11,667 nt of DNA from the IMG/VR virus record IMGVR_UViG_2541047721_000002; one strand, given 5' to 3'. Shown here piece by piece: positions 1-11,667 of the stretch (its first letter is position 1; each line of letters starts with the position of its first letter). This stretch comes from a virus. Lineage: Duplodnaviria > Heunggongvirae > Uroviricota > Caudoviricetes. Position numbers and translations under genes: made by a program. The notes under the pieces were generated by a model. That model saw only the letters and a program-made list of their open reading frames with translations, was not told where the DNA came from and did not search any database.

Positions 1-1293
<1,293 letters not shown>

Positions 1294-1315
1294 TACCCAA
1301 TTTTTCTGAATCTAA

Positions 1316-1335
1316 AAAGCGCCTGCGGGCGCTTT
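1316..1335 (+). terminator. short GC hairpin (AGCGCC-TGCG-GGCGCT) just after serS stop; weak or truncated T-tract
   Basis: Perfect 6-bp inverted repeat with 4-nt loop seen directly; followed by TTAAG rather than a U-run, so it may be a disrupted terminator or junction remnant. Confidence 0.3.
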
Positions 1336-1413
1336 AAGTAGAGGTTTAATCATTTGAAAATAAATGGATTTTATTTTTAAGTGTCCATATAACGTCCATC
1401 TTTGAATGCAAAA

Positions 1414-1448
1414 AGCCCACAGCTTCTATGCTGTGGGCTTTGTTTTTT
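1414..1448 (+). terminator. rho-independent terminator downstream of serS
   Basis: AGCCCACAG-cttctatg-CTGTGGGCT 9-bp stem followed by TTGTTTTTT; preceded by an A-run so it could act in both directions. Confidence 0.6.
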
Positions 1449-1469
1449 GGTGTCCTCATGAGTGAGGGA

Positions 1470-1504
1470 ATCAAAAAGAAAACCCGCAGTTTTTACGCTG
1501 CGGG
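1470..1504 (-). terminator. rho-independent terminator for the minus-strand hok-like transcript
   Basis: CCCGCAG / CTGCGGG 7-bp stem (1483-1489 and 1498-1504) with 8-nt loop; on the minus strand the stem is followed by TTTTCTTTTTGA (complement of 1465-1482). Confidence 0.55.
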
Positions 1505-1598
1505 CTTGTTGTTCACGTCAACTGGAAATAGGGTGCCTTTTCGACCTTTACCCTGGCAACCGATTGACGGGGAAGTTGCCTTCCCCGTCGCGGTTTCC

Positions 1599-1739
1599 TT
1601 ACTGCTTACACTGTAAGAACGCCGCAAACTCCGCTCCCCAGAAACTCATCCGTATTTCACACAGCGAACCGTGCAGCATCCAGATGATGAGGATTGCCGT
1701 CACGCAGAATGTGATGGCCGTAAGCGATTTTTGCGACAT
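1599..1739 (-). CDS. Hok/Gef-family type I toxin (small membrane-depolarising peptide), 46 aa
   Basis: Not in the ORF track (too short). Minus-strand ATG at 1739 preceded by AAGGAG RBS; translation MSQKSLTAITFCVTAILIIWMLHGSLCEIRMSFWGAEFAAFLQCKQ; TAA at 1601-1599. Single N-terminal hydrophobic helix plus the Hok-family C-terminal signature SLCE(I/L)R…(E)xAAF(L/M)AC, closest in my memory to HokA-type peptides. Overlapped by a longer out-of-frame upstream ORF (mok-like) and followed by a terminator. Confidence 0.7.
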   Translation of the reverse strand: MSQKSLTAITFCVTAILIIWMLHGSLCEIRMSFWGAEFAAFLQCKQ

Positions 1740-1842
1740 AGCGCTTGCTCCTTTTTCGGGGAGGCGCTAACCTATCACTTGCTGAGGGTAGATGGTTAGG
1801 GCCTCGGGTTAACGTTAAAGTTGACTCGGGGCCTTTCCACAT
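1657..1842 (-). CDS. mok-like overlapping reading frame (translational coupling ORF of a hok locus)
   Basis: 61-aa ORF starting at ATG 1842, overlapping the 5' part of the hok-like ORF in another frame, as in canonical hok/mok/sok loci. Its sequence has no recognisable domain; the call rests on arrangement only. Confidence 0.35.
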   Translation of the reverse strand: MWKGPESTLTLTRGPNHLPSASDRLAPPRKRSKRYVAKIAYGHHILRDGNPHHLDAARFAV

Positions 1843-1930
1843 CTGGCCTTCGGGTATTCCCTCCGACCATCAGCCGAAAGGCACCCGCGCGTAATCTATC
1901 GCTTTTTTGTTACTCCGGCAATTCTGCCTG

Positions 1931-2191
1931 TTAATTCTGAGATAAAGGCAAACTCATCTGATTGTTTCCCCTGTGTGAAGCTGGCAGCTCATGCCACGGG
2001 ATACCTTCTGAAGAGTGAACGCCGGAGGCGTGTTTTGATGTGAATTTATGGAAAGCTTCCAGTGTTGAGAAGCATACGCCGCATTCCAGATTGTTACACT
2101 GGTAATACTTTTGCCGCACGGTGTTTGAATCATTTTCCGGACGACTGGTGCGGATACGGGCAGATGCGCCACAAAGCGGACAACGGAACAT
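1931..2191 (-). CDS. ogr: Ogr/Delta-family zinc-finger late-gene transcriptional activator
   Basis: 86-aa ORF, ATG at 2191 with AAGGGAGG RBS 6 nt upstream; N-terminus MFRCPLCGASARIRTSR…YYQCNNLECGVCF has the C-x2-C…C-x4-C zinc-finger layout and closely resembles P2 Ogr / 186 B (MFHCPLC…ARTSR…HQCQN…C…F). Lies immediately downstream of D on the same strand, as in P2. Confidence 0.85.
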   Translation of the reverse strand: MFRCPLCGASARIRTSRPENDSNTVRQKYYQCNNLECGVCFSTLEAFHKFTSKHASGVHSSEGIPWHELPASHRGNNQMSLPLSQN

Positions 2192-2231
2192 AGCGACCTC
2201 CCTTAACGTGGTGCTGCCTATTCTAAGTTGC

Positions 2232-3341
2232 TCACTCTGTTTCCGCTATCCATTCCGGGATTTTTGCCTCAAGCTCAAGCTGCGTGGTAAAACCGCTGTT
2301 ATCAATGGTGTGCTCGGCTTTTGCAATGATCCAGTCCTGATTATCAATCTCGCTTTTAAATCCTGTTACCGTGCCATGCATTTCGGGGTAGAGTTCTGCA
2401 CGTCCACGCGCCAGCGTGATGGAGAATGATGCGGCTCCGCGTTGTAGTTGCTGCCACTTTGCCGCCGCTGCGCGTCTTGCTGCCTGCTCGTTCTGATAAG
2501 TCTTGCGTAACACAAACACATTGCCTTCCGCGCCTTCCATATAATCACCTTCGCGGCTGCTGCTTTTCTCCTTTTTGGGTTTTGGCGGTTTACGGCGTTT
2601 CACGCTGACTTTTTTCTTTTTCCCGTAATTAAGATCAAGCCAGTAAGCGCGTACCCCCGTATACGCTTCGCGGTCAGCAATGCGGAACTGATGGCGATCG
2701 CCGCTGCTGCGTGTGATGGCAAACGATGGCAACGGCTGGCCCTGTGCGTTCACGCCACCGCCGGGCATGATGAATAACAGATTACCGCTTTTTACCGTGG
2801 TGATTGCGCCCAGCATTTCCGCCATGCGCGTAAGGAAGGACATGTCGCTTTCTTCGGTCTGGTCGGCGTGGTCGATTTCGATATCCATCAGCATTTCGCT
2901 GATTTGCGGTTTCAGACCATACCGATGAGCGATGGCGGATACCACACGCTCAACGGTCACATCATGCCAGGACACCTCACGTTTAACGTTAAATTCATCC
3001 CGAAAATCTGCGCTTCTGGCTGAAACAGTCAGCCTGTCCGGCGGTCCTTCGTGAGCGATTTCATCAACAATGTAAGTGCCTTTTTCTGTCAGCGGTTCTC
3101 CTTTCCAGCCAATGAGAACCGTCAGGCGCGCGCCCCGTGGCGGTAGCTGCAACTGACCATCCGCATCATCCAGCGTGATGGTGAGCTGGTCCGCGTCAAA
3201 TCCCCGGTTGTCGGTCAGTGACAGGCTCATCAGGCGCTCTGCCACGCCTGACAGCGTTTTACCCTCCGCGAGAATATCAAAATCCGGCATTTTCACGGGG
3301 TCTGTGCCCTGACTGAGCAATTGCATGGTGGTATCGGTCAT
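2232..3341 (-). CDS. D: P2 gpD-like tail protein (tail-completion / late control D family)
   Basis: Minus-strand frame with stop at 2232. Motifs typical of P2 gpD are present (…SLSLTDNRGFDADQLTITLDDADG…, …SARSADFR…REVSWHD…, …AYTGV…, …REGDYMEGAEGNVF…, …QLQRG…FSI…GR…, …GFK…IDNQDW…NSGFTT.LELE…). I place the start at ATG 3341 (MTDTTMQLL…) because an AGGGAGG RBS lies 5-11 nt upstream; the ORF-track extension to 3473 has no RBS. Confidence 0.85.
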   Translation of the reverse strand: MTDTTMQLLSQGTDPVKMPDFDILAEGKTLSGVAERLMSLSLTDNRGFDADQLTITLDDADGQLQLPPRGARLTVLIGWKGEPLTEKGTYIVDEIAHEGPPDRLTVSARSADFRDEFNVKREVSWHDVTVERVVSAIAHRYGLKPQISEMLMDIEIDHADQTEESDMSFLTRMAEMLGAITTVKSGNLLFIMPGGGVNAQGQPLPSFAITRSSGDRHQFRIADREAYTGVRAYWLDLNYGKKKKVSVKRRKPPKPKKEKSSSREGDYMEGAEGNVFVLRKTYQNEQAARRAAAAKWQQLQRGAASFSITLARGRAELYPEMHGTVTGFKSEIDNQDWIIAKAEHTIDNSGFTTQLELEAKIPEWIAETE

Positions 3342-3498
3342 CTGTTCCCTCCCTGTGCGGCATAGTCGCATGTGCGTGCGGAGGGGGTTACTGCTTTTTG
3401 TTGTCGCCGGGTCGGGAGAACGGCGCAGGGGTGAGATTACGCGCGTGGTGGGTGATGATTGTTGCCGAATCATTTAACGGATACAAGGGGCTGAAGCT
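3342..3498. promoter_or_regulatory. divergent intergenic region between D (minus) and FI (plus); expected site of late promoter(s)
   Basis: 157-bp non-coding gap between two divergent start codons, each with a good RBS. I could not find a canonical Ogr-type TGT-N12-ACA element by eye, so promoter positions are unassigned. Confidence 0.4.
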
Positions 3499-4683
3499 AT
3501 GAGTGAAACTCGTTTTCATGGTGCCCGTGTTACGGAAAGTACCGACCTGGTAACAGCGATTAATGATGTTGATTCCAGCGTTATCGGTATCGTGGCAACG
3601 GCGGATGATGCGGACGCGAAGCTGTTCCCGCTGAACAAGCCCACACTGCTGACCCGCGTCAATGACGTGCTGGGAAAATGCGGGACAACGGGGACGCTTT
3701 ATCGTGCGCTTAAGGCCATCGCAGACCAGGTGAGCACAAAGGTGATCGTCGTTCGCGTGGCTGAACACAAAGAAGAAAACGGAAAGACGCAGGATCAACT
3801 GGTTATCGGTGGTTCTGAATCTGACGGCAGCTATACGGGGATGTATGCGCTGCTTGTTGCAGAGCAGGATGAAAGCATCGGATACCGTCCGCGTATTCTG
3901 GCCGCGCCGGAGCTGGACACGGAGGCGGTGACAAAATCCCTGTGCGTGATTGCGGGTAAACTGCGCGCGTTTGTGTATGCCACATGTCATGGTTGTAACA
4001 CGATGGCTGAGGCGATTACCTACCGCCAGAAATTCAACGAACGTGAGGTGATGCTCTTATGGCCTGACTTCATCGCCTACAACCCGAAAAGTGGCAAAAA
4101 CGAAACGTTCCCCGCGCCTGCTTATGCGTGCGGCCTTCGTGCGTACATTGACCATGAGCAGGGCTGGCACAAATCGCTGTCCAACGTTCCGGTTAAAAAT
4201 GTGCTGGGGATGTCGAGGCATGTGTTCTGGTCGTTACAGGCCGAAGACAGTGATGCCAACAGCCTCAACAACAAAGAAATCACGACCATTATTCGTCGTA
4301 ACGGGTTCCGCTTCTGGGGCAACCGCACACCGGAAACGAACGCCTACATCTTTGAGGTGTATACCCGAACCGCACAGGTGCTGGCTGATTCAATTGCGGA
4401 AGCGCAGTTTGAAACCATCGACAGTCCACTGACACCTGCGAACGTGAAGGATGTTATCAGCGCCATCAGAGCAAAACTGGATTCGCTGGTTACTGTCGGG
4501 AAACTGATTGGTGCGGAGTGCTGGTATGACGTGGTGGATAACAGCACCACGGGTTTACGTCAGGGGCGTGTGCGTATTCGCTACAAATATACGCCCGTTC
4601 CTCCGCTGGAAGACATGGAGCTTTACCAGTCGTTTACTGATGAATTCTTTGGTCCCGCATTTGCGGTGCTGGGAGGTGCCTGA
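3499..4683 (+). CDS. FI: contractile tail sheath protein (P2 gpFI family)
   Basis: 394-aa ORF, ATG at 3499 with AAGGGG RBS. Blocks co-linear with P2 FI: …DADA.LFPLNKP.L…, …GTLY.AL.AIADQ…, …KLRAFVYA…, …YRQ.F..RE.M..WPDF…, …DHEQGWHK.LSNV…, …IRR.GFRFWGNRT…, …Y.RTAQV.AD…, …I.Y.YTPVPPLE…. Confidence 0.93.
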   Translation: MSETRFHGARVTESTDLVTAINDVDSSVIGIVATADDADAKLFPLNKPTLLTRVNDVLGKCGTTGTLYRALKAIADQVSTKVIVVRVAEHKEENGKTQDQLVIGGSESDGSYTGMYALLVAEQDESIGYRPRILAAPELDTEAVTKSLCVIAGKLRAFVYATCHGCNTMAEAITYRQKFNEREVMLLWPDFIAYNPKSGKNETFPAPAYACGLRAYIDHEQGWHKSLSNVPVKNVLGMSRHVFWSLQAEDSDANSLNNKEITTIIRRNGFRFWGNRTPETNAYIFEVYTRTAQVLADSIAEAQFETIDSPLTPANVKDVISAIRAKLDSLVTVGKLIGAECWYDVVDNSTTGLRQGRVRIRYKYTPVPPLEDMELYQSFTDEFFGPAFAVLGGA

Positions 4684-5195
4684 TGGCTGTACCAAAACAT
4701 CTTCGCTTTTTTACGTTGTTTGTGGATGGTGAAAACGAAGTGGGTAAAGTGACATCCGTCACGCCACCCAAACTGACGCGCAAAACCGACAGCTATCGTG
4801 GTGGTGGCATGATGGGGGCGGTAAGTATTGATCTCGGTCTGGACGACTCCGCGCTTGATGCGAGTTTTGTCATGGGGGGAGCTGTTCGTGCGCTGTTCCT
4901 TAAATATGGCGGCACGATTGACGGCACGCTGCTGCGTTTTGCGGGTGAATACTACACCGATGCAGAAAGCGATCTGTATGAAATCGAGATGCGCGGGCGT
5001 GTGACGGAAATTGATATGGGGGAGGCCAAACAGGGCGAAGCCACATCACACACTTACGCTGTCAAAAACACCTACTACAAGCTGAGCGTTAACGATCGCC
5101 CGCTGTGGGAAATCGACCTGTTGAACCACATCTACCGGAAGGACGGCAAGGACATTGTGCCTGACCGCATTCGTTCCGCGCTTGGGCTTGGCTGA
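4683..5195 (+). CDS. FII: tail tube protein (P2 gpFII family)
   Basis: 170-aa ORF whose ATG (4683-4685) overlaps the FI stop TGA (4681-4683) in a TGATG arrangement; size and position immediately after the sheath gene match P2 FII. Confidence 0.88.
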   Translation: MAVPKHLRFFTLFVDGENEVGKVTSVTPPKLTRKTDSYRGGGMMGAVSIDLGLDDSALDASFVMGGAVRALFLKYGGTIDGTLLRFAGEYYTDAESDLYEIEMRGRVTEIDMGEAKQGEATSHTYAVKNTYYKLSVNDRPLWEIDLLNHIYRKDGKDIVPDRIRSALGLG

Positions 5196-5250
5196 TAAGT
5201 AATATGCAGGCGGCGCAGTGCGTCGCCTCTGACTGAAAAGGAGACAACTG

Positions 5251-5625
5251 ATGAAAGATATCGATACTGAAACCCGGAATAACACCGTAGCGGATGATGT
5301 GACGTCAGGTGAGGATATGGCTGTCGAACGTGGTGTAAAACTTTCCCGGCCAATTGAGCGTGGTGCCGAAAAAATCACATATGTGGAGATCACCGGGGCT
5401 ATTGAACAGGCTGGATCCCTGCGTGGTCTGTCTCTGTCTGATGTGCTGAATCTGAAAGCGGATACCATGTTCACGCTGTTGCCTCGCGTGACCTCGCCAC
5501 GACTGGATGAAGTGATGATTAAAAAAATGTCGTCACGCGATTTTATTCAGTTGTGCGCTGTGGCTGTAAATTTTATGAGCGAGCCAGACTCTGGCGCGAA
5601 GAGCGTGCAGGAGACGGCAGCGTAA
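5251..5625 (+). CDS. E: tail assembly chaperone E (P2 gpE; lambda gpG analogue)
   Basis: 124-aa ORF, ATG at 5251 preceded by AAAAGGAGA RBS; sits between the tube gene and the tape measure gene, with an overlapping -1 frame ORF running to 5789 as expected for E/E'. Confidence 0.75.
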   Translation: MKDIDTETRNNTVADDVTSGEDMAVERGVKLSRPIERGAEKITYVEITGAIEQAGSLRGLSLSDVLNLKADTMFTLLPRVTSPRLDEVMIKKMSSRDFIQLCAVAVNFMSEPDSGAKSVQETAA

Positions 5626-5789
5626 TCACCCTGGTGTGCTTTGAGCACATCGAAGATCTGGTGGCGGATATTGCCGCCATTTTTAACTGGTCGCCCGCCG
5701 AAATCTTCATGATGACGCCCGGCGAAGTGGTTAGCTGGCGCGAGCGGGCGGCACTTCGCAGCGGGAATGCAGACAATGAAGACTCTTGA
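5523..5789 (+). CDS. E: E' extension frame, expressed as an E+E' fusion by -1 programmed ribosomal frameshift (P2 gpE+E'; lambda gpGT analogue)
   Basis: The -1 frame relative to E is open from 5523 to TGA at 5787-5789 and overlaps the T start, as in P2. Candidate slippery sites in the overlap: A AAT TTT at 5568-5574 (fits X_XXY_YYZ in the E frame) and the A7 run at 5521-5527. The downstream E' part (SVITLVCFEHIEDLVADIAAIFNWSPAEIFMMTPGEVVSWRERAALRSG) looks protein-like. Confidence 0.6.
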   Translation, partial: KNVVTRFYSVVRCGCKFYERARLWREERAGDGSVITLVCFEHIEDLVADIAAIFNWSPAEIFMMTPGEVVSWRERAALRSGNADNEDS

Positions 5790-8583
5790 TATCCGGGTCG
5801 CTTTCAGCGCCGTTGACAGGCTGACCCGGCCTGCCGAAAACGCCCGCCGCCTGATGGGGCAGTTTGGTGACTCCATCCAGCGAACGCAGGGGGCGATCAA
5901 AAATCTCGAGCGTCAGGCGCGTTCATTTGAGCGCGCCCGTGACGCTGTCAGTAAAGCGGATGCGGGCATCGTGAAAGCACGACGCCAGCTTAACGCCCTT
6001 AATCAGTTACAACGCACGGGTACAGTGCTCAGCGAAAAACAACAAAAGCTGATGCAGCAGTTAAGCACCCGGCTTGAACGCCTGAATGAATCGCGCACAC
6101 GGGAAATTCAGAAAATGCGGGAACTTGGCGGAGAGCTGAAACGCCACGGCATTTCCCTGACAGGCAGCGATAACACCATCCAGCAGGCCATCAGACGCAC
6201 CGAACAGTACAACAACCAGCTTGAACGCGAACGGCAGGCGCTTGCGCGTGTAACGCGGGCGCGTGAGCGGTATTCGCGCGCGCAGGAAACCGCGGGAAAA
6301 CTGAAAACAGGTGGTGCGCTGGCAATTGGTGCTGCAGCGGCTGGCGGCTATGCTGCCGGGCGTTTTTTGCAGCCTGCGATCGGGTTCGGCAAAGAGATGT
6401 CCCGCGTTCAGGCACTGACGCGAATCGACAAAAACAGCCCGCAGTTTAAGGCGCTGCGTGAGCAGGCGTTAAAACTTGGTTCTGAAACACAGTTTACTGC
6501 GAGTGATGCCGCCAGTGGGCAGAGCTTTCTGGCAATGGCTGGTTTTACTCCGCAGGCCATTCAGGCCGCATTGCCCGGTGTTCTTAATATGGCGCTGGCA
6601 GGTGGCGTCGAACTCGGCGAGACGGCTGATATAGGCTCCAATATCCTCACACAGTTCAACCTGACAGCCGATCAAATGGACCGGGTTGGCGATACGCTGA
6701 CAGCAGCATTCACCCGGACCAATACTGATTTACGCGCGCTGGGCGAAACCATGAAGTATACCGGTCCGGTTGCCGCAAAACTTGGTATCAGTCTTGAAGA
6801 AGCGGCGGCCATGGCCGGGATGCTTGCCAATAATGGTCTTCGCGGAAGCGATGCTGGTACGGCCATGCGCGCAAGTCTGTCCCGCCTTGCATCACCGCCA
6901 AAAGCTGCGGCTGATGCACTGAAAGAGCTGGGGGTGTCAGTTGCTGACGCCAGAGGCAAAATGCGCCCGATGGAGGATGTGCTGCTTGATCTCTATAAGG
7001 CGACACAAAAATACGGACAGGTGGACCAGGTTTCCTTCTTCAAGGACATCGCCGGAGAAGAGGCGTTCGTTGGTTTACAGACGCTTGTTGCGGCGGCTGG
7101 TTCAGGAGAGCTGCAAAAACTGACCAGAGAATTGCAGGGGGCAAGGGGAGAGGCCGATCGCGTTGCAAAAGTAATGGCCGATAATCTTGATGGGGACCTG
7201 AAAAATCTCGACAGCGCATGGGAAGGTCTTCGTATTCGCATCAGTGATCTGGTTGACGGTCCGCTGCGTTCTGTCACGCAGTGGCTCACGCGGGTGCTTG
7301 AAAAAATCACCTCGCTGGCGCAGGCCCATCCGGTACTGACGCGCCAGCTACTGATAGCAGGCGGTGCGTTGCTGGCAATGACTGCAACGATTGGCTCGTT
7401 GTCGCTGGTTATTGGGGTGCTTTACGGAAAGCTGGCCACCCTGCGTCTTGGTTTTGACATTCTTACCCGGTCAATGAATGTCGTCCGGGTGTTGCCTGCG
7501 CTGTGGGGAATGCTGACGGGTTCTGTTTCTTTGCTGGGAGGCGCTATCGGGGCGCTGTTCAGTCCGGTTGGATTGATTGCTGCTGCGTTTGTGGCTGCGG
7601 CGGTTCTCATCTGGAAATACTGGGAACCCATTAAGGCGTTTTATGCCGGGGTGTTCAACGGGATTATGGAAAGGCTGACCCCGTTGCGCGAAACCTTTGA
7701 ACGGTTTGGTCCTGTTTTTGACGCAATCGGAAGCGGGATCAGCCAGGTGTTTAACTGGTTTAAATCGCTGCTGTCACCGATGGAGTCCAGCAAGGAAACG
7801 CTGGATAAATGTACCAGTGCTGGCGAGATATTCGGTAACGTTCTTGGTGGCGCGTTACAGCTTGTTCTGACGCCTGCAAAAATGTTGCTGGATACGCTGG
7901 CGTGGATACTTGAAAAACTCGGTGTTCTTCCGGATGAAGCGGAAAGGGCGAGAAAGAAAATCGAAGACGTACAGCGTGCGGCCATTCTTCAGGACAAGGT
8001 TACCTTGCTTCAGGGGGACCTGGCGAAAATCAATCCGCCGAAGCCTGTGGAAAATGGCAATGGCACCGGAGGTGATAACCCCAAAGACAATAAACCGCTC
8101 ACAGACAGCAATACCGGGACGCTGCGCAGACTCAGCAAAATTGCTGATAACACAGGTAAGCTGGTTGAGGAGACGAAAAAACGCATTGGCCCCGGCGATA
8201 TTGTCTTTAAAAACCTGCCCCGAGCACTTGCTGTTCGTGGGGAGTGGCAGGAGCGGAAGATTGCGCAGGTCAGTAAGCCTGCCCCCGCAATTAATATCAC
8301 ACCCGTGGTCCCGGCTCCGCTGCCTCCGGCGCTGGTCCCTGTTGTTGCGGCCAGCTCCCGCCCGGTGGCGGAGGCCATACGATCTCCAGTGGCATCAGTT
8401 CCTGTAACTTCCCGTAACCGGGAGCCTGTTGCCTCCGGATTTGGTGGTGAAATTCATGTTCATCTGCATAACGTTGTTACGCAGAATCCCCGCGAACTGG
8501 CGAAACTGGTCGGTGAAATGGTCAGGGCAGAAATGGAACGGCGTGCCCGTGCCGGGCGTGGCAGTTTTTACGATAAAGATTGA
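5767..8583 (+). CDS. T: tail tape measure protein (P2 gpT family)
   Basis: 938-aa ORF, the largest in the cluster, directly after E/E'. It has an N-terminal coiled-coil region rich in Q/R/E/L, a central hydrophobic segment (~7320-7640) and a Pro/Val/Ala-rich C-terminus. Start could be ATG 5767 or ATG 5776. Confidence 0.9.
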   Translation: MQTMKTLDIRVAFSAVDRLTRPAENARRLMGQFGDSIQRTQGAIKNLERQARSFERARDAVSKADAGIVKARRQLNALNQLQRTGTVLSEKQQKLMQQLSTRLERLNESRTREIQKMRELGGELKRHGISLTGSDNTIQQAIRRTEQYNNQLERERQALARVTRARERYSRAQETAGKLKTGGALAIGAAAAGGYAAGRFLQPAIGFGKEMSRVQALTRIDKNSPQFKALREQALKLGSETQFTASDAASGQSFLAMAGFTPQAIQAALPGVLNMALAGGVELGETADIGSNILTQFNLTADQMDRVGDTLTAAFTRTNTDLRALGETMKYTGPVAAKLGISLEEAAAMAGMLANNGLRGSDAGTAMRASLSRLASPPKAAADALKELGVSVADARGKMRPMEDVLLDLYKATQKYGQVDQVSFFKDIAGEEAFVGLQTLVAAAGSGELQKLTRELQGARGEADRVAKVMADNLDGDLKNLDSAWEGLRIRISDLVDGPLRSVTQWLTRVLEKITSLAQAHPVLTRQLLIAGGALLAMTATIGSLSLVIGVLYGKLATLRLGFDILTRSMNVVRVLPALWGMLTGSVSLLGGAIGALFSPVGLIAAAFVAAAVLIWKYWEPIKAFYAGVFNGIMERLTPLRETFERFGPVFDAIGSGISQVFNWFKSLLSPMESSKETLDKCTSAGEIFGNVLGGALQLVLTPAKMLLDTLAWILEKLGVLPDEAERARKKIEDVQRAAILQDKVTLLQGDLAKINPPKPVENGNGTGGDNPKDNKPLTDSNTGTLRRLSKIADNTGKLVEETKKRIGPGDIVFKNLPRALAVRGEWQERKIAQVSKPAPAINITPVVPAPLPPALVPVVAASSRPVAEAIRSPVASVPVTSRNREPVASGFGGEIHVHLHNVVTQNPRELAKLVGEMVRAEMERRARAGRGSFYDKD

Positions 8584-8589
8584 GGAGTC

Positions 8590-9084
8590 ATGGCCATGAT
8601 GATGATCTATGGCATGTTTGTTTTTGAGCTGCGCACATTGCCGCATCAGCAGTTACAGCAAAACAAAAGCTGGCGGCATGTGAAAAATGAACGCGTTAAT
8701 CGTTCAGCAAGCTGGCAGTATATCGGCGCAGGTGATGATCGCATCGTGCTTTCCGGCGTGCTTTATCCTGAAATTACAGGTGGCGAAGTGTCGCTTTCGT
8801 TGCTGACCACGCAGGCATATACAGGACGCCCCTGGCCTCTGATTGATGGTGTCGGGCAGATTTACGGCATGTATGTACTGACTGAAACGAATACGACCCG
8901 TTCCGAGTTTGATCGCTACGGTAAGGCGAAAAAGATAGAATTTTCACTGACTCTTGAACGCTGTGATGAGGATTTGCGGGAGCGCCTGCAATCCTCATCG
9001 TTCAGTGATATGCTGTCCGGCTTCAAAGATAAGGTCACATCATCCCTTAACAGCGCGGCCAGCTCCGTTAAAGGGCTGTTTTGA
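8590..9084 (+). CDS. U: tail protein U (P2 gpU family)
   Basis: 164-aa ORF, ATG at 8590 with GAGGAG RBS, immediately after T. N-terminus (M)MMIYGMFVFELRTLP… and overall size match P2 gpU. Confidence 0.88.
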   Translation: MAMMMIYGMFVFELRTLPHQQLQQNKSWRHVKNERVNRSASWQYIGAGDDRIVLSGVLYPEITGGEVSLSLLTTQAYTGRPWPLIDGVGQIYGMYVLTETNTTRSEFDRYGKAKKIEFSLTLERCDEDLRERLQSSSFSDMLSGFKDKVTSSLNSAASSVKGLF

Positions 9085-9092
9085 TTAACGCA

Positions 9093-9120
9093 AAACCGCT
9101 AATGGTCAGATTAGCGGTTT
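9093..9120. terminator. bidirectional hairpin between convergent U and invertase genes
   Basis: AAACCGCTAAT-ggtcag-ATTAGCGGTTT 11-bp stem followed by TCATTTTCC; the invertase stop codon (9111-9113) lies inside the stem. Confidence 0.5.
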
Positions 9121-9710
9121 TCATTTTCCTGAGTCTGCCTGGTTGTTTCTTCAGCCTGTATATCGCCTACAGGGTGATAACGATAAATCGTCGATATGCC
9201 GATGTCGTAAATGATCGCCAGTTGTTTCCTGTCATGACCGTTTTTAATCAGCCTCGCTATTTGCTCGTGTTGTTCTTTTGTCAACTTCGGGCGACGTCCG
9301 CCAATGCGTCCTTGTGCGCGTGCTGCTGCCAGCCCGGCCAGTGTACGCTCTACAATTAATTCACGTTCCATTTCGGCTAAAGCCCCCATGACGTGAAAAA
9401 AGAAACGCCCCATGGGTGTTGATGTGTCAATGCTGTCCGTCAGACTACGGAAATTAACACCTTTTTCCCGCAATTCCTCAATAAGCGTGATCAGGTGTTT
9501 CATACTTCTGCCCAGTCTGTCCAGCTTCCAGACAACCAGCGTATCTCCTTCTGATAGCGTTCTGAGCAGTTTTTTCAATCCCGGTCTGGTTGATTTCGTT
9601 CCGCTGATTTTATCTTCAAAAATCAGTTCACATCCTGCGCAGTTCAGTGCATTGCGTTGTAAATCCGTGTTCTGGTCGTTTGTTGACACACGAATATAGC
9701 CAATTTGCAT
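9111..9710 (-). CDS. serine DNA invertase, Gin/Pin/Hin/Cin family
   Basis: Minus-strand ORF. I place the start at ATG 9710 (MQIGYIRVSTNDQNTDLQRNAL…), which gives ~199 aa. The N-terminus and catalytic region (…GDTLVVWKLDRLGRSMKHLI…FRSLTDSIDTS.PMGRFFFHVMGALAEMERELI.ERT.AGLAAAR..GRIGGR.PKLT…) are nearly identical in pattern to E. coli Pin and Mu Gin, including the active-site serine in YIRVST. A C-terminal helix-turn-helix region follows. Confidence 0.93.
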   Translation of the reverse strand: MQIGYIRVSTNDQNTDLQRNALNCAGCELIFEDKISGTKSTRPGLKKLLRTLSEGDTLVVWKLDRLGRSMKHLITLIEELREKGVNFRSLTDSIDTSTPMGRFFFHVMGALAEMERELIVERTLAGLAAARAQGRIGGRRPKLTKEQHEQIARLIKNGHDRKQLAIIYDIGISTIYRYHPVGDIQAEETTRQTQENENR

Positions 9711-9764
9711 AAAAAACATCCTCTTTGTTTCGTGAAAAATACAGAGTTGGTATAGGTAGGGATA

Positions 9765-9790
9765 AAAACGAAAACGTTGGTTTAGGAGAA
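9765..9790. other. putative left crossover site of the invertible segment (gix/hix/pix-like)
   Basis: AAAACGAAAACG-TT-GGTTTAGGAGAA. The inner half-site in complement reads TTCTCCTAAACC, close to the half-site of known Gin/Hin sites (TTCCTGTAAACC / TTATCAAAAACC) as I remember them. The outer half is degenerate. The core dinucleotide falls at the V-G codons before the conserved LGEG motif. Confidence 0.45.
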
Positions 9791-10138
9791 GGCTCGGCGC
9801 TACCCGTTGGTGTGCCTGTTCCGTGGCCCACCGCCACACCGCCAGCAGGCTGGTTAAAGTGCGACGGGCGCGCCTTTACAAAAGAACAATATCCTGTTCT
9901 GGCCAGAGCCTACCCGACCCTCCGTCTTCCCGATTTACGCGGTGAGTTTATCCGTGGATGGGACGACGGGCGCAAAGTTGATACAGGACGTAAGTTGCTG
10001 TCCGCACAAGGGGCAACTATGTTATCCGCTTTTGTTGTTGATTATTCCAAACAGGTCACTACGCTAGGCTCGAGGAAAGTCGGCATGGGAGACACTATAG
10101 CAGATTACCAACCAGACGTTAGTGATGGCAACTTTTAG
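9776..10138 (+). CDS. silent alternative tail-fibre C-terminal cassette (Sv'-like), promoterless in this orientation
   Basis: Open frame …VGLGEGSALPVGVPVPWPTATPPAGWLKCDGRAFTKEQYPVLARAYPTLRLPDLRGEFIRGWDDGRKVDTGRKLLSAQG…DGNF*. The first ~70 aa are near-identical to the expressed cassette on the opposite strand and include the tail-fibre collar-type PDLRG…RGWD motif. There is no ATG or RBS; the frame begins at the crossover site. Confidence 0.6.
   Translation, partial: VGLGEGSALPVGVPVPWPTATPPAGWLKCDGRAFTKEQYPVLARAYPTLRLPDLRGEFIRGWDDGRKVDTGRKLLSAQGATMLSAFVVDYSKQVTTLGSRKVGMGDTIADYQPDVSDGNF
9818..9965. repeat. left copy of ~148-bp near-identical inverted repeat inside the invertible segment
   Basis: By manual reverse-complement alignment, 9818-9965 matches the complement of 11193-11340 with only a few mismatches, whereas flanking coding sequence drops to roughly 80% identity with synonymous differences. 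Confidence 0.7.
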
Positions 10139-10863
10139 ATACTTGATGCGTCCTCATTCGGCGCTCCAAGCTTAGCAATGTGGGATAATGTATCAGAGGG
10201 CACCCTCCAGATCGCAATTAAAAGTAGCTTTACGACGGCTAGCTATGGCTCAACCGGCAGGATTGAATGTAATTTCAGGCTAACTGATTTCTAATGAGTA
10301 GCACAGCTCTACTGCGTTCAGACCGTATATCTAATCTAGCAGGCGGTATCATTTTGTAGCTTCTTGACGTGGAAGCCCGGGAATAGACCTCAGTTTCTGT
10401 TTGATATGACGGCCTGACGCTGTGGCCTGTGTCACCTTTTGGTGGCGTTGCACTCTCGCAACCTCCATTGCGGCGCTTCGTTTCCGGTACTGATAGGTTG
10501 CCCGGGTCTGAGCGTTCCACTTATCACAGCGGCTAGATGGTTTTCATCTGGTAGAGTGGGACGGGCAATCAGCTTATCCGGCAGGGAGATTGGGGTTAGC
10601 ACTCTCCCAGAAAAATGCCGGCCAGGCGCGGGGATCAGTGACATGCTCACGCCTGTTTAACGGGTCCGGACGGCAAGCCACGTGACGCAAAGTAGCTTCC
10701 CACACTGCAACGCCGGCCGAGGGTGACACAGTAGCTGCCGCAAGTGGAACTTACCACCCTGAGGATGAGTTGTATTCCCAGTCTTACACCACATGGTGCG
10801 ATAAAATTAAATCGCGCGCTACAGTATAGCTACCAGTTTCATGCAGAACATATCTGCTAGTCA
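10139..10863. other. ~725-bp ORF-free core of the invertible segment; function unknown
   Basis: No ORF over 81 aa in any frame, and those present are low-complexity with no RBS. It lies where tail-fibre assembly chaperone genes sit in Mu G, P1 C and e14 P segments. Contains at least 4 CTAG tetranucleotides (10239, 10336, 10533, 10857), a motif normally scarce in enterobacterial DNA. Confidence 0.5.
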
Positions 10864-11667
10864 CTAGACATCACTTAGCCTGTAGTACCGTTCAAACTTA
10901 CGGGTTGAACGGGTTCTCCCCGCCGTCAAGCTATTTTTGATTGCGGTAATAAGAGGGCCAGGCATAACATTGTCCGACATTTCAAAGCTTTGTTCGCCTA
11001 AAGATGTTCCATCAGGTATTCTCTTTCTGCCCTCACTAACGCCCATTTTGGTATAGGCTTTAGTGTCACCAAATCCGAATTGCGCAGAGCCGCCCGTACT
11101 GTCATCGCTGTAATAATCCAGCTCAGCTCCGCTTACGATCGTCCCCTCTTGAAATGAAAGTACCGTACGCCCGGTATCAACCTTGCGACCACCGTCCCAT
11201 CCACGGATAAACTCACCGCGCAAATCGGGAAGACGGAGGGTCGGGTAGACTCTGGCCAGAACAGGATATTGTTCTTTGGTGAACGTAGCTCCGTTGCACT
11301 GTAACCAGCCTGCTGGCGGTGTGGCAGTGGGCCACGGAACAGGTACACCAACAGGCAATGCAGAGCCTTCCCCCAAACCAAGGTAATTGAGGACATCTTT
11401 TATACTGCCCTTAGCGATAATAGCGCGACCAATAGCTGTAAGGGTTGCCAGCGCTGCGCGGTCTGCTCCGGTAAAATAAGGCAACCGATCTGCTGCAGTG
11501 GCAAGTCCTGCCAGAGCAGTGAGCGTGGCATCTGCCGGTTGTTTTCCGTTTGCCAGATCGTATGCAGCCTTGACCGCTTTCGGTGTGGCGGCCAGTATTT
11601 CAGACGTGCTGTTGGTGGCGCTACTGAGTTGAACAAGGCCTTTTCGTGCCGTAGTCGCATCCTGAGC
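10864..11667 (-). CDS. tail fibre protein, 3' portion (expressed orientation; 5' part lies beyond the right window edge)
   Basis: I translated the minus-strand frame by hand from 11667 down to TAG at 10866-10864 and it is open throughout: …SSATNSTSEILAATPKAVKAAYDLANGKQPADATLTALAGLATAADRLPYFTGADRAALATLTAIGRAIIAKGSIKDVLNYLGLGEGSALPVGVPVPWPTATPPAGWLQCNGATFTKEQYPVLARVYPTLRLPDLRGEFIRGWDGGRKVDTGR…YRLSDV*. The ORF-track start at 11484 is a TTG inside this frame, not the true start. Contains the collar-type motif shared by Mu S, P1 S and e14 StfE-type fibres. Confidence 0.85.
   Translation of the reverse strand, partial: AQDATTARKGLVQLSSATNSTSEILAATPKAVKAAYDLANGKQPADATLTALAGLATAADRLPYFTGADRAALATLTAIGRAIIAKGSIKDVLNYLGLGEGSALPVGVPVPWPTATPPAGWLQCNGATFTKEQYPVLARVYPTLRLPDLRGEFIRGWDGGRKVDTGRTVLSFQEGTIVSGAELDYYSDDSTGGSAQFGFGDTKAYTKMGVSEGRKRIPDGTSLGEQSFEMSDNVMPGPLITAIKNSLTAGRTRSTRKFERYYRLSDV
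11193..11340. repeat. right copy of ~148-bp near-identical inverted repeat
   Basis: Reverse complement of 11193-11340 aligns with 9818-9965, e.g. ACCAAAGAACAATATCCTGTTCTGGCCAGAGTCTACCCGACCCTCCGTCTTCCCGATTT versus ACAAAAGAACAATATCCTGTTCTGGCCAGAGCCTACCCGACCCTCCGTCTTCCCGATTT. Confidence 0.7.
11368..11393. other. putative right crossover site of the invertible segment (gix/hix/pix-like)
   Basis: TTCCCCCAAACC-AA-GGTAATTGAGGA. The inner half-site TTCCCCCAAACC is in inverted orientation to the left site. The core falls at the L-G codons (CTT GGT) before LGEG in the expressed fibre, in the same codon phase as the left site, so inversion would give an in-frame fusion. Confidence 0.45.

Follow-up and report, generated by a model that had tools for sequence, protein, structure and literature searches.

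Gene content and prophage setting

The DNA analysed here, a stretch of 11,667 nucleotides referred to as the window, agrees with the NCBI draft scaffold KE699334.1 (GCA_000456865.1) with 0 differences. On the scaffold, a P88-type (Xuanwuvirus, P2-like) prophage comes after E. coli serS, and the source record has a 389-N scaffold gap beyond the window end (N run at 11893-12281 of L014). Judged by the Pfam families of the called genes, the prophage carries P2-type late genes (ogr, D, FI, FII, E/E', T, U, H and others) in P88 order, with an invertase gene between U and H, and thus belongs with the P2-like Peduoviridae, genus Xuanwuvirus. The annotation of strain U15A has the same gene order and goes on into baseplate, lysis, and capsid genes. 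Of 5426 complete E. coli genomes, about 1100 have at least 80% of positions 1-9100 at one place; these positions comprise serS and the prophage tail genes up to gpU. The features of the remaining part are collected in the table.

Features of the invertible locus, in window coordinates
Feature	Position	Strand	Basis
Hairpin, perfect 12-bp stem and 6-nt loop	9092-9121		inverted repeat I6; terminator-like match
DNA invertase, 199 aa, Gin/Cin/Pin/Hin serine recombinase subfamily	9111-9710	-	Mu Gin structure match, Pfam, U15A annotation
Putative Fis-dependent recombinational enhancer	9621-9692	-	covers nt 19-90 of the invertase gene, where the enhancer of P1 cin is annotated
Left 26-bp crossover site, core TT 9777-9778	9765-9790	+	20/26 to P1 cixL; adjoins the invertase gene
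Cassette A, authentic 5' part, tail collar domain, silent, promoterless	9779-10017	+	100% identical to U15A; Pfam Collar 1.5e-16
Interior, artefact, per-base blend of forward and inverted segment	10018-11149		comparison with U15A
Expected in the interior: rest of cassette A	to ~10294	+	U15A homology
Expected in the interior: assembly gene	~10294-10908	+	U15A homology
Expected in the interior: end of cassette B	~10915-11149	-	U15A homology
Cassette B, authentic 5' part, tail collar domain	11150-11379	-	100% identical to U15A; translation; Pfam Collar
Right 26-bp crossover site, core AA on the + strand at 11380-11381	11368-11393	-	19/26 to P1 cixR; within gene H
Gene H constant part, Phage_fiber_2 repeats then ...KDVLNY	11382-11667	-	translation; extends past the window

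Escherichia phage P88 (Xuanwuvirus, Peduoviridae; KP063541) has the order hok/gef, D (-), FI, FII, E, E', T, and U (+), invertase (-), silent cassette (+), and H (-), like the window, and its gpU-invertase DNA is 81% identical. It differs in having other cassettes and two assembly genes, one per orientation. An earlier note had regarded the linkage of the invertase to P2-type sheath, tube, and tape-measure genes as an unusual mosaic tail module. This is not new, because P88 shares the gene order.

The invertase matches the Mu Gin structures 4M6F and 3UJ3 with E=2e-91 over residues 1-185 (4M6F: 2.4e-91). It contains the Pfam domains Resolvase (2.4e-51) and HTH_7 (1.4e-12), and the U15A annotation has a recombinase at its coordinates. 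The gene is intact, and alignment to Gin (4M6F) shows that the catalytic Ser9 (in YIRVSTNDQ) and the DRLGRS motif are conserved. An N-terminal resolvase domain, a serine near residue 9-10, a C-terminal HTH, and a length of about 190-200 aa are the features of serine invertases, and all are present; the Pin/Gin-like invertase that the earlier note had placed beside the segment is therefore real. The previously listed ORF 9111-9839 is the invertase frame with a spurious upstream GTG, and the real start gives MQIGYIRVSTNDQ. The hairpin lies between the convergent gpU (stop 9084) and invertase (stop 9111) genes and is likely a bidirectional terminator. The putative enhancer is identical to the annotated P1 cin enhancer at 56 of 72 positions and to that of Mu gin at 52 of 72. 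The same bases encode a conserved protein segment, and this similarity cannot be separated from protein-coding conservation. A Fis-bound enhancer within the invertase gene probably assists inversion.

Crossover sites and tail-fibre cassettes

The left site reads AAAACGAAAACG TT GGTTTAGGAGAA on the + strand, and the right site, read on the - strand from 11393 to 11368, is TCCTCAATTACC TT GGTTTGGGGGAA. Besides their likeness to P1 cixL and cixR, the sites agree with Mu gix at 17 of 26 positions. No other 26-mer of the window scores 18/26 or more; a shuffle control has a mean of 0.18 at this threshold and 0.017 at 19 or more. The sites are inverted, flank the segment, and both have the core TT once oriented alike. 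On both sides the TT fills codon positions 2-3 (GTT, CTT) directly 5' of G-L-G-E-G. The positions given for the two sites in the earlier note are exact, and its description of cores in the same codon phase before an LGEG motif holds. The 5' crossover site of prophage Phi2 in EC958, TCCTCAATTACCTT GGTTTAGGAGAA, combines an outer half identical to that of the right site (TCCTCAATTACC-TT; PMC4134206 Table 3) with the inner half of the left site.

A 357-nt imperfect inverted repeat starts at the sites, with a complementarity of 77% in total and ~90% in its first 220 nt. The similarity of its arms begins exactly at the core dinucleotide of both sites. A Logan short-read contig of a related strain stops at 9783, which is the last base common to both possible junctions.

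Cassette B is currently an in-frame fusion to the constant part of H. In U15A, H has 590 aa and comprises Phage_tail_fib, five Phage_fiber_2 repeats, and Collar, and in 266917_2 it has 587 aa and is followed by the assembly gene. Two intact in-frame alternative C-terminal ORFs are absent from the deposited sequence and present in these near-identical genomes. In U15A the true end of one cassette is ...SIALNYIVRAV, with a tail-fibre assembly gene of 204 aa after it, and that of the other is ...NIAFNYIVRAA. The segment of the relatives thus comprises cassette A with one assembly-chaperone gene, and cassette B. The single Caudo_TAP gene lies 3' of cassette A, and cassette B ends tail-to-tail against it; an assembly gene after each cassette, as in the Mu S/S'-U/U' type, is not found in the relatives. 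A scan for a sigma-70-like promoter reading into the silent cassette gave no match. Three-cassette versions of the locus occur in other strains, for example KUN2017-0933.

The interior and the two orientations

Identity to U15A is 100% at 9001-10017 and 11150-11667, and ~62% without gaps in between. Within this interior, 1131 of 1132 positions equal the U15A base either in the forward orientation or after inversion about both cores: 416 are forward-only, 433 inverted-only, 282 both, and 1 neither. The choice of orientation is coin-flip-like and independent between sites (runs test z=1.2), with no influence of the adjacent site or of the position mirroring it. T is mildly favoured (240 vs 184, p=0.007), and none of the bases strongly so. 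The assembly-gene frame has 14 stops in the deposited interior. The blend is found in the NCBI scaffold as deposited, which excludes an origin after deposition.

A divergent cassette allele or an insertion is rejected, because the length equals that of U15A, the alignment is gap-free, either orientation gives ~62% identity, and the types of substitution are uniform. A plain inverted state of the segment does not fit either, since interior identity in the reverse-complement alignment is no higher than ~62% as well. An additional pair of crossover sites further in, at ~10010/11148, could have explained the purely forward arms but is rejected, as nothing there is gix/cix-like and the two sides are dissimilar. 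Positions 10100-10900 had no match in the collections searched. Exact-match scans of genome, metagenome, and viral collections with a blended 40-mer gave none, and a look-up of the 137-aa chimeric ORF was empty. Rfam found nothing in the ORF-free interior, and its composition is unremarkable; a non-coding element there was no longer considered after the interior had been recognised as a blend.

Of the two opposed tail-fibre cassettes described in the earlier note, the 5' collar parts stand, and the ends as read do not, because the interior is scrambled. The proposed swap of ...YRLSDV for ...DGNF falls with them, and the scrambling also hides the tail-fibre assembly gene, which the earlier note does not mention. 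Their stops at 10864 and 10138 are chance stops, because 10018-11149 is a per-nucleotide mixture of orientations.

Related genomes contain the segment in both orientations, and for the source strain the evidence is indirect. Between U13A and U14A, which are isolates of one patient, a 1607-bp block with 99.4% identity is inverted, with its ends at window positions 9778 and 11384. The invertase flank is joined to cassette A in 222 complete genomes and to cassette B in 179. Genomes in the inverted state have an intact H with the assembly gene directly after it. The paper on strains U12A-U15A (PMC6692316) does not mention inversion.

Inversion has been published for sister prophages. In EC958 (E. 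coli ST131), ~50% of PacBio reads support each orientation of the Phi1 segment, separate alternate-orientation contigs were assembled for Phi2 and Phi4, and a table lists 26-bp sites of the same type (Forde et al. 2014, PMC4134206). Phi1, Phi2, and Phi4 come from the same species and are of the same P2-like prophage type, with a constant part of H carrying Phage_fiber_2 repeats fused to invertible collar cassettes, an adjacent invertase, and 26-bp sites. Phi2 also has a single assembly gene. It is inserted at aroA and has three cassettes in a 2067-bp segment, whereas the present prophage lies at serS and has two cassettes in a segment of ~1603 bp. The mixture led to spurious extra contigs in EC958 and to a blended consensus here.

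The available text of Goldberg et al. 2014 (PMC4272514) describes inversion of tail-fibre ends, driven by Hin homologues and confirmed, in P2-like E. coli prophages of EPEC. According to this text, the variants of E2348/69 coexist in clonal cultures by sequencing, and the PCR confirmation concerned e14 of K-12. Unlike the window locus, one E2348/69 locus is there a shufflon with three repeats and four variants. The C segment of P1 (Cin/cix) and the G segment of Mu (Gin/gix) involve the same enzyme subfamily and 26-bp sites with a 2-bp core, which in P1 cix is also TT. In both phages the crossover takes place at a conserved ...GL... motif of the fibre gene, and the 5' end of the invertase gene contains the enhancer, as proposed here. 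They differ from the present locus in their non-P2 tails, in segment size (4.2 and 3 kb, against 1.6 kb), and in a full pair of cassette and chaperone per orientation, against one chaperone gene.

Interpretation of the locus

The best explanation, with a probability of about 0.9, is a classical site-specific inversion switch in a P88-type prophage beside serS, where deposited positions 10018-11149 are a mixture of both orientations. The Gin-like serine invertase would act on the two inverted sites, and the ~1.6-kb segment between cores 9777/9778 and 11380/11381 would flip. The H promoter and the ~430 N-terminal codons would remain outside the segment, and either cassette A or cassette B would become the C-terminal receptor-binding end of H, because the crossovers share the codon phase before G-L-G-E-G. 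The only tail-fibre assembly gene would come after cassette A. The outcome may be a population of prophages and virions with two host specificities. In that interval the assembler wrote a position-by-position mix of both orientations, so that neither the two cassette ends nor the assembly gene kept a reading frame. The source culture most likely held both orientations, to judge from the artefact, as EC958 did at about 50:50.

If the deposited sequence were correct, the segment would contain two short degenerate fibre ends (...DGNF and ...YRLSDV), with a non-coding spacer of ~700 bp and no assembly gene, which is the earlier note taken literally. Practically no credence can be given to this. 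Both ORFs start with a genuine collar domain and the sequence stands in the public record, but every interior position except one agrees with a single known sequence in one or the other orientation, with the register kept exactly and no indels. The substitutions have no transition bias, and no recombination or mutation process yields such a pattern. The abrupt fall in identity to U15A and the lack of matches to 10100-10900 and to the internal 40-mer in the collections searched also speak against it. A blend of purely computational origin, with the segment resolved for example against its own reverse complement via the arms, is quite improbable. In this case the culture would have had one orientation, and the artefact would be uninformative on switch activity in the source strain. 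The arms are in its favour, since their ~45 informative sites (9784-10017 and 11150-11375) are all forward, and a simple forward/inverted pile-up or a true 50:50 mixture should have blended them too; moreover, the blended interval corresponds to the part over which the orientations do not align. However, the inverted component fits an inversion about both cores exactly in register, the invertase and both sites are intact here, and flipping is demonstrated in sister strains and sister prophages.

General homologous recombination between the 357-nt arms, with the invertase and the 26-bp sites incidental, is very improbable as the main route of inversion. The complementarity of the arms would allow it, and 266917_2 (B-type outer arm on both sides) and U13A (A-type on both sides) have hybrid arms, which need exchange or conversion inside the arms. 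Yet localized conversion beside crossover sites is said to have been described by Iida and Hiestand-Nauer in 1986 as a by-product of Cin inversion. The arm similarity starts exactly at the cores of cix/gix-like sites, an intact Gin-like enzyme adjoins them, and an independent read set has its contig break at the core, not within an arm. Mixtures of ~50:50 during culture growth, as reported for EC958 Phi1 and K-12 e14, also fit site-specific inversion better.

The Gin/Pin-type switch of the C-terminal part of the tail fibre proposed in the earlier note is thus borne out by the enzyme, the sites, both orientations in natural genomes, and published experiments on sister prophages (PMC4134206, PMC4272514). 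It is real but already known, because tail-fibre switching by invertases has been documented in P2-like E. coli prophages, also in the same clonal group. A further reading for the serS/aroA prophage lineage is that the switch is no symmetric A/B host-range toggle and alternates between a chaperone-assisted fibre and a chaperone-independent tip or non-functional fibre. This is suggested because cassette A alone is co-transcribed with the assembly chaperone, while cassette B, and the third cassette in some strains, ends tail-to-tail against the chaperone gene. The reading is unlikely; if true, inversion would effectively be an ON/OFF switch for infectivity or tailocin-like killing.

The biological addition is small, and the practical value lies in a warning. 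At an invertible locus, a public draft genome contains 1.1 kb of sequence that does not exist. The false ORFs (...DGNF and ...YRLSDV) and the false loss of the assembly gene result from the blend, and uses of the record in annotation, pangenome, and machine-learning work inherit the error. The artefact can also serve as a fingerprint: in short-read drafts, a sequence blended base by base with its own reverse complement points to phase-variable inversion.

Invertase, crossover sites and genomic setting

The Pin/Gin-like invertase that the earlier note placed beside the segment is intact, comprises Resolvase and HTH_7 domains, aligns at E=2e-91 with the Mu Gin sequences of the crystal structures, and keeps Ser9 and the DRLGRS motif. 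Nucleotides 19-90 of its gene share 56/72 positions with the enhancer annotated in P1 cin. The annotated records of P1 and Mu supplied the reference cixL/cixR and gixL/gixR, with which the window was scanned on both strands. The two inverted 26-bp sites proposed earlier are the top two matches on either strand (20/26 and 19/26), and the only ones in the window scoring at least 18/26; shuffles give 0.18 such sites (0.017 at ≥19). The shared codon phase ahead of LGEG also holds: once oriented alike, both sites have the core TT, in codon positions 2-3 (GTT and CTT), directly before G-L-G-E-G-S-A-L-P. The arm-to-arm similarity starts exactly at the core and extends ~240-350 nt inward.

The window has 0 differences from the NCBI draft scaffold KE699334.1 (GCA_000456865.1), where a 389-N gap follows directly after its final base (scaffold-locus 11893-12281), inside the repeats of the tail-fibre gene H. 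The gap falls in a tandem array of 132-nt units (in U15A, five 44-aa Phage_fiber_2 repeats), and H is present as two separate gene calls in the source record. Of 5426 complete E. coli genomes, ~1100 have ≥80% of window 1-9100 (serS and the prophage tail genes to gpU) in one place; the nearest is ST131 strain U15A, at 99.3% over this stretch. The differences from U15A are mostly transitions concentrated in the hok/sok region, and look natural. A hok/sok-type toxin-antitoxin module, 1599-1886(-), sits between serS and ogr and accounts for most of these differences. The FI-FII-E-T-U block (3499-9084) lies on the opposite strand to D/ogr (1931-3473) and to H (within 9111-11667), an arrangement from which the gene order of P2 itself differs. 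It is a lineage trait, because P88 is arranged likewise.

Features of the window and, from strain U15A, of the real segment (U15A locus coordinate = window + 3001)
Feature	Position	Strand	Remarks
serS	1-1293		
Hok/Gef gene	1599-1739	-	46 aa
sok-like RNA match	1726-1886	-	42.8 bits, under the gathering score of 59
ogr	1931-2191	-	
D		-	
FI, sheath	3499-4683		
FII, tube	4683-5195		
E/E'			with ogr, D, FI, FII, T and U, the P2-type late genes
T, tape measure	5776-8583		
U	8590-9084		
Invertase	9111-9710	-	199 aa
Cassette A (U15A)		+	silent; ends ...SIALNYIVRAV
Caudo_TAP tail-fibre assembly gene (U15A)	U15A locus 13295-13916 (= window ~10294-10915)		204 aa; directly after cassette A
Cassette B (U15A)		-	fused to H; ends ...NIAFNYIVRAA; stop tail-to-tail against the assembly gene

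The blended interior of the segment

Even in a sensitive search mode, nothing in the complete E. coli genomes matches window 10100-10900. The region 9001-11667 is collinear with U15A and of equal length, and the 50-nt identity profile is 100% up to 10017 and from 11150, with ~62% gapless identity between. Compared with the U15A segment in reverse complement, the interior is likewise ~62% identical and gapless. An inverted U15A form was built by flipping the segment about both core dinucleotides, and window, forward and inverted forms were aligned three-way. The 1132 interior positions consist of 416 forward-only, 433 inverted-only, 282 shared by both, and a single one matching neither. The choice between forms is balanced (p=0.58), and independent between neighbouring sites (runs test z=1.2) and between mirror-image positions. 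Transitions are not favoured among the substitutions that separate the window from U15A, and the window has 14 stop codons within the frame of the U15A assembly gene. A mild preference for the written base T (chosen 240 times, rejected 184 times where it is an option, p=0.007) may be a clue to the assembler's base picking.

No mutational or recombinational process gives a base-by-base coin flip between a segment and its own reverse complement; the interior 10018-11149 is an artefact of consensus building in the deposited draft, and the cassette ends "...DGNF" and "...YRLSDV" named earlier are therefore chance stops within the mixture. The blend keeps exact register with an inversion about the two cores, and the best interpretation is that the sequenced DNA contained both orientations. 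It is restricted to the stretch over which the two orientations do not align with each other, and the ~45 informative arm sites (9784-10017 and 11150-11375) are all forward, a pattern not expected from a simple pile-up of reads. Drafts of this accession series were presumably produced by a graph assembler that records ambiguities.

Both orientations in natural genomes

U13A and U14A, two urinary isolates from a single patient, belong to one ST131 lineage (PMC6692316). They differ by an inverted 1607-bp block of 99.4% identity with ends at window 9778 and 11384. Among complete genomes, the invertase flank is joined to cassette A in 222 and to cassette B in 179. The inverted-state genomes 266917_2, 30821_1#280 and 1450 have an intact H of ~587 aa with the assembly gene directly after it. 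A short-read contig of run ERR4036490, which encodes an identical tape-measure protein, ends at window 9783, the last base common to the two junctions that are possible; such an end is expected when the reads contain both of them.

Just inside the cores, some tens of bp do not always stay with the remainder of the segment. In U13A the ~40 bp adjoining each core on its inner side are A-type (equivalent to window 9784-9814), and 266917_2 has B-type outer arms on both sides (equivalent to 11249-11375). Since each carries one type at both ends, localized conversion or exchange within the arms, additional to the core crossover, is suggested. In U13A (locus 3580-5187) the tail-fibre gene is annotated as stopping 215 nt short of the assembly gene, and in U14A (locus 2277-2794) the silent cassette is annotated as frameshifted. 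Such single-base indels at the invertible locus of finished genomes may be consensus errors from mixed orientation.

Known switches and proposed mechanism

The switch is already known. In EC958, each orientation of the Phi1 tail-fibre segment is found in ~50% of PacBio reads, contigs of alternate orientation were assembled for Phi2 and Phi4 too, and 26-bp crossover sites are tabulated (Forde et al. 2014, PMC4134206). In the Phi2 5' site, the outer half is that of the window's right site and the inner half that of the window's left site (PMC4134206). In EPEC, coexisting orientation variants of P2-like prophages were detected by sequencing and a three-repeat shufflon was described, and the variants of K-12 e14 were confirmed by PCR (Goldberg et al. 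2014, PMC4272514). Fibre-end switching by inversion stands: the analysis or the cited papers show the enzyme, the sites, the codon phase, both orientations in natural genomes and sister elements that flip. The cassette ends first assigned to it do not stand.

P88 (Xuanwuvirus) shares the window's order of hok, D(-), FI-U(+), invertase(-), silent cassette(+) and H(-). Because this order is identical, a Gin-type switch joined to sheath, tube and tape-measure genes of P2 type is the norm for P88's phage group, and not the new mosaic tail module that had been suggested. P88, Mu and P1 have one assembly gene per orientation, whereas the window's prophage lineage has one in all, shared by two cassettes and, in some strains, by three. 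It lies 3' of cassette A in U15A, and likewise in U14A, KUN2017-0933 and EC958 Phi2. Cassette B and the extra cassettes of KUN2017-0933 and EC958 Phi2 lack their own and lie tail-to-tail against the one present. Three collar-domain cassettes occur at the same locus in KUN2017-0933 (locus 2277-5612) and EC958 Phi2 (locus 3052-5061), which would make the switch multi-site and shufflon-like in these strains.

In the proposed mechanism the invertase, expressed from its own gene adjoining the left site, pairs both sites and swaps strands at their 2-bp cores. To judge from Cin, Gin and Hin, it probably makes use of a Fis-bound enhancer in the 5' part of its coding sequence. The promoter and constant region of H (N-terminal domain, five 44-aa Phage_fiber_2 repeats, ...KDVLNY) are outside the segment. 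Because the crossover is in phase, H is completed either by cassette A, which is followed by the assembly gene, or by cassette B, and the two cassettes would be expected to differ in host range.
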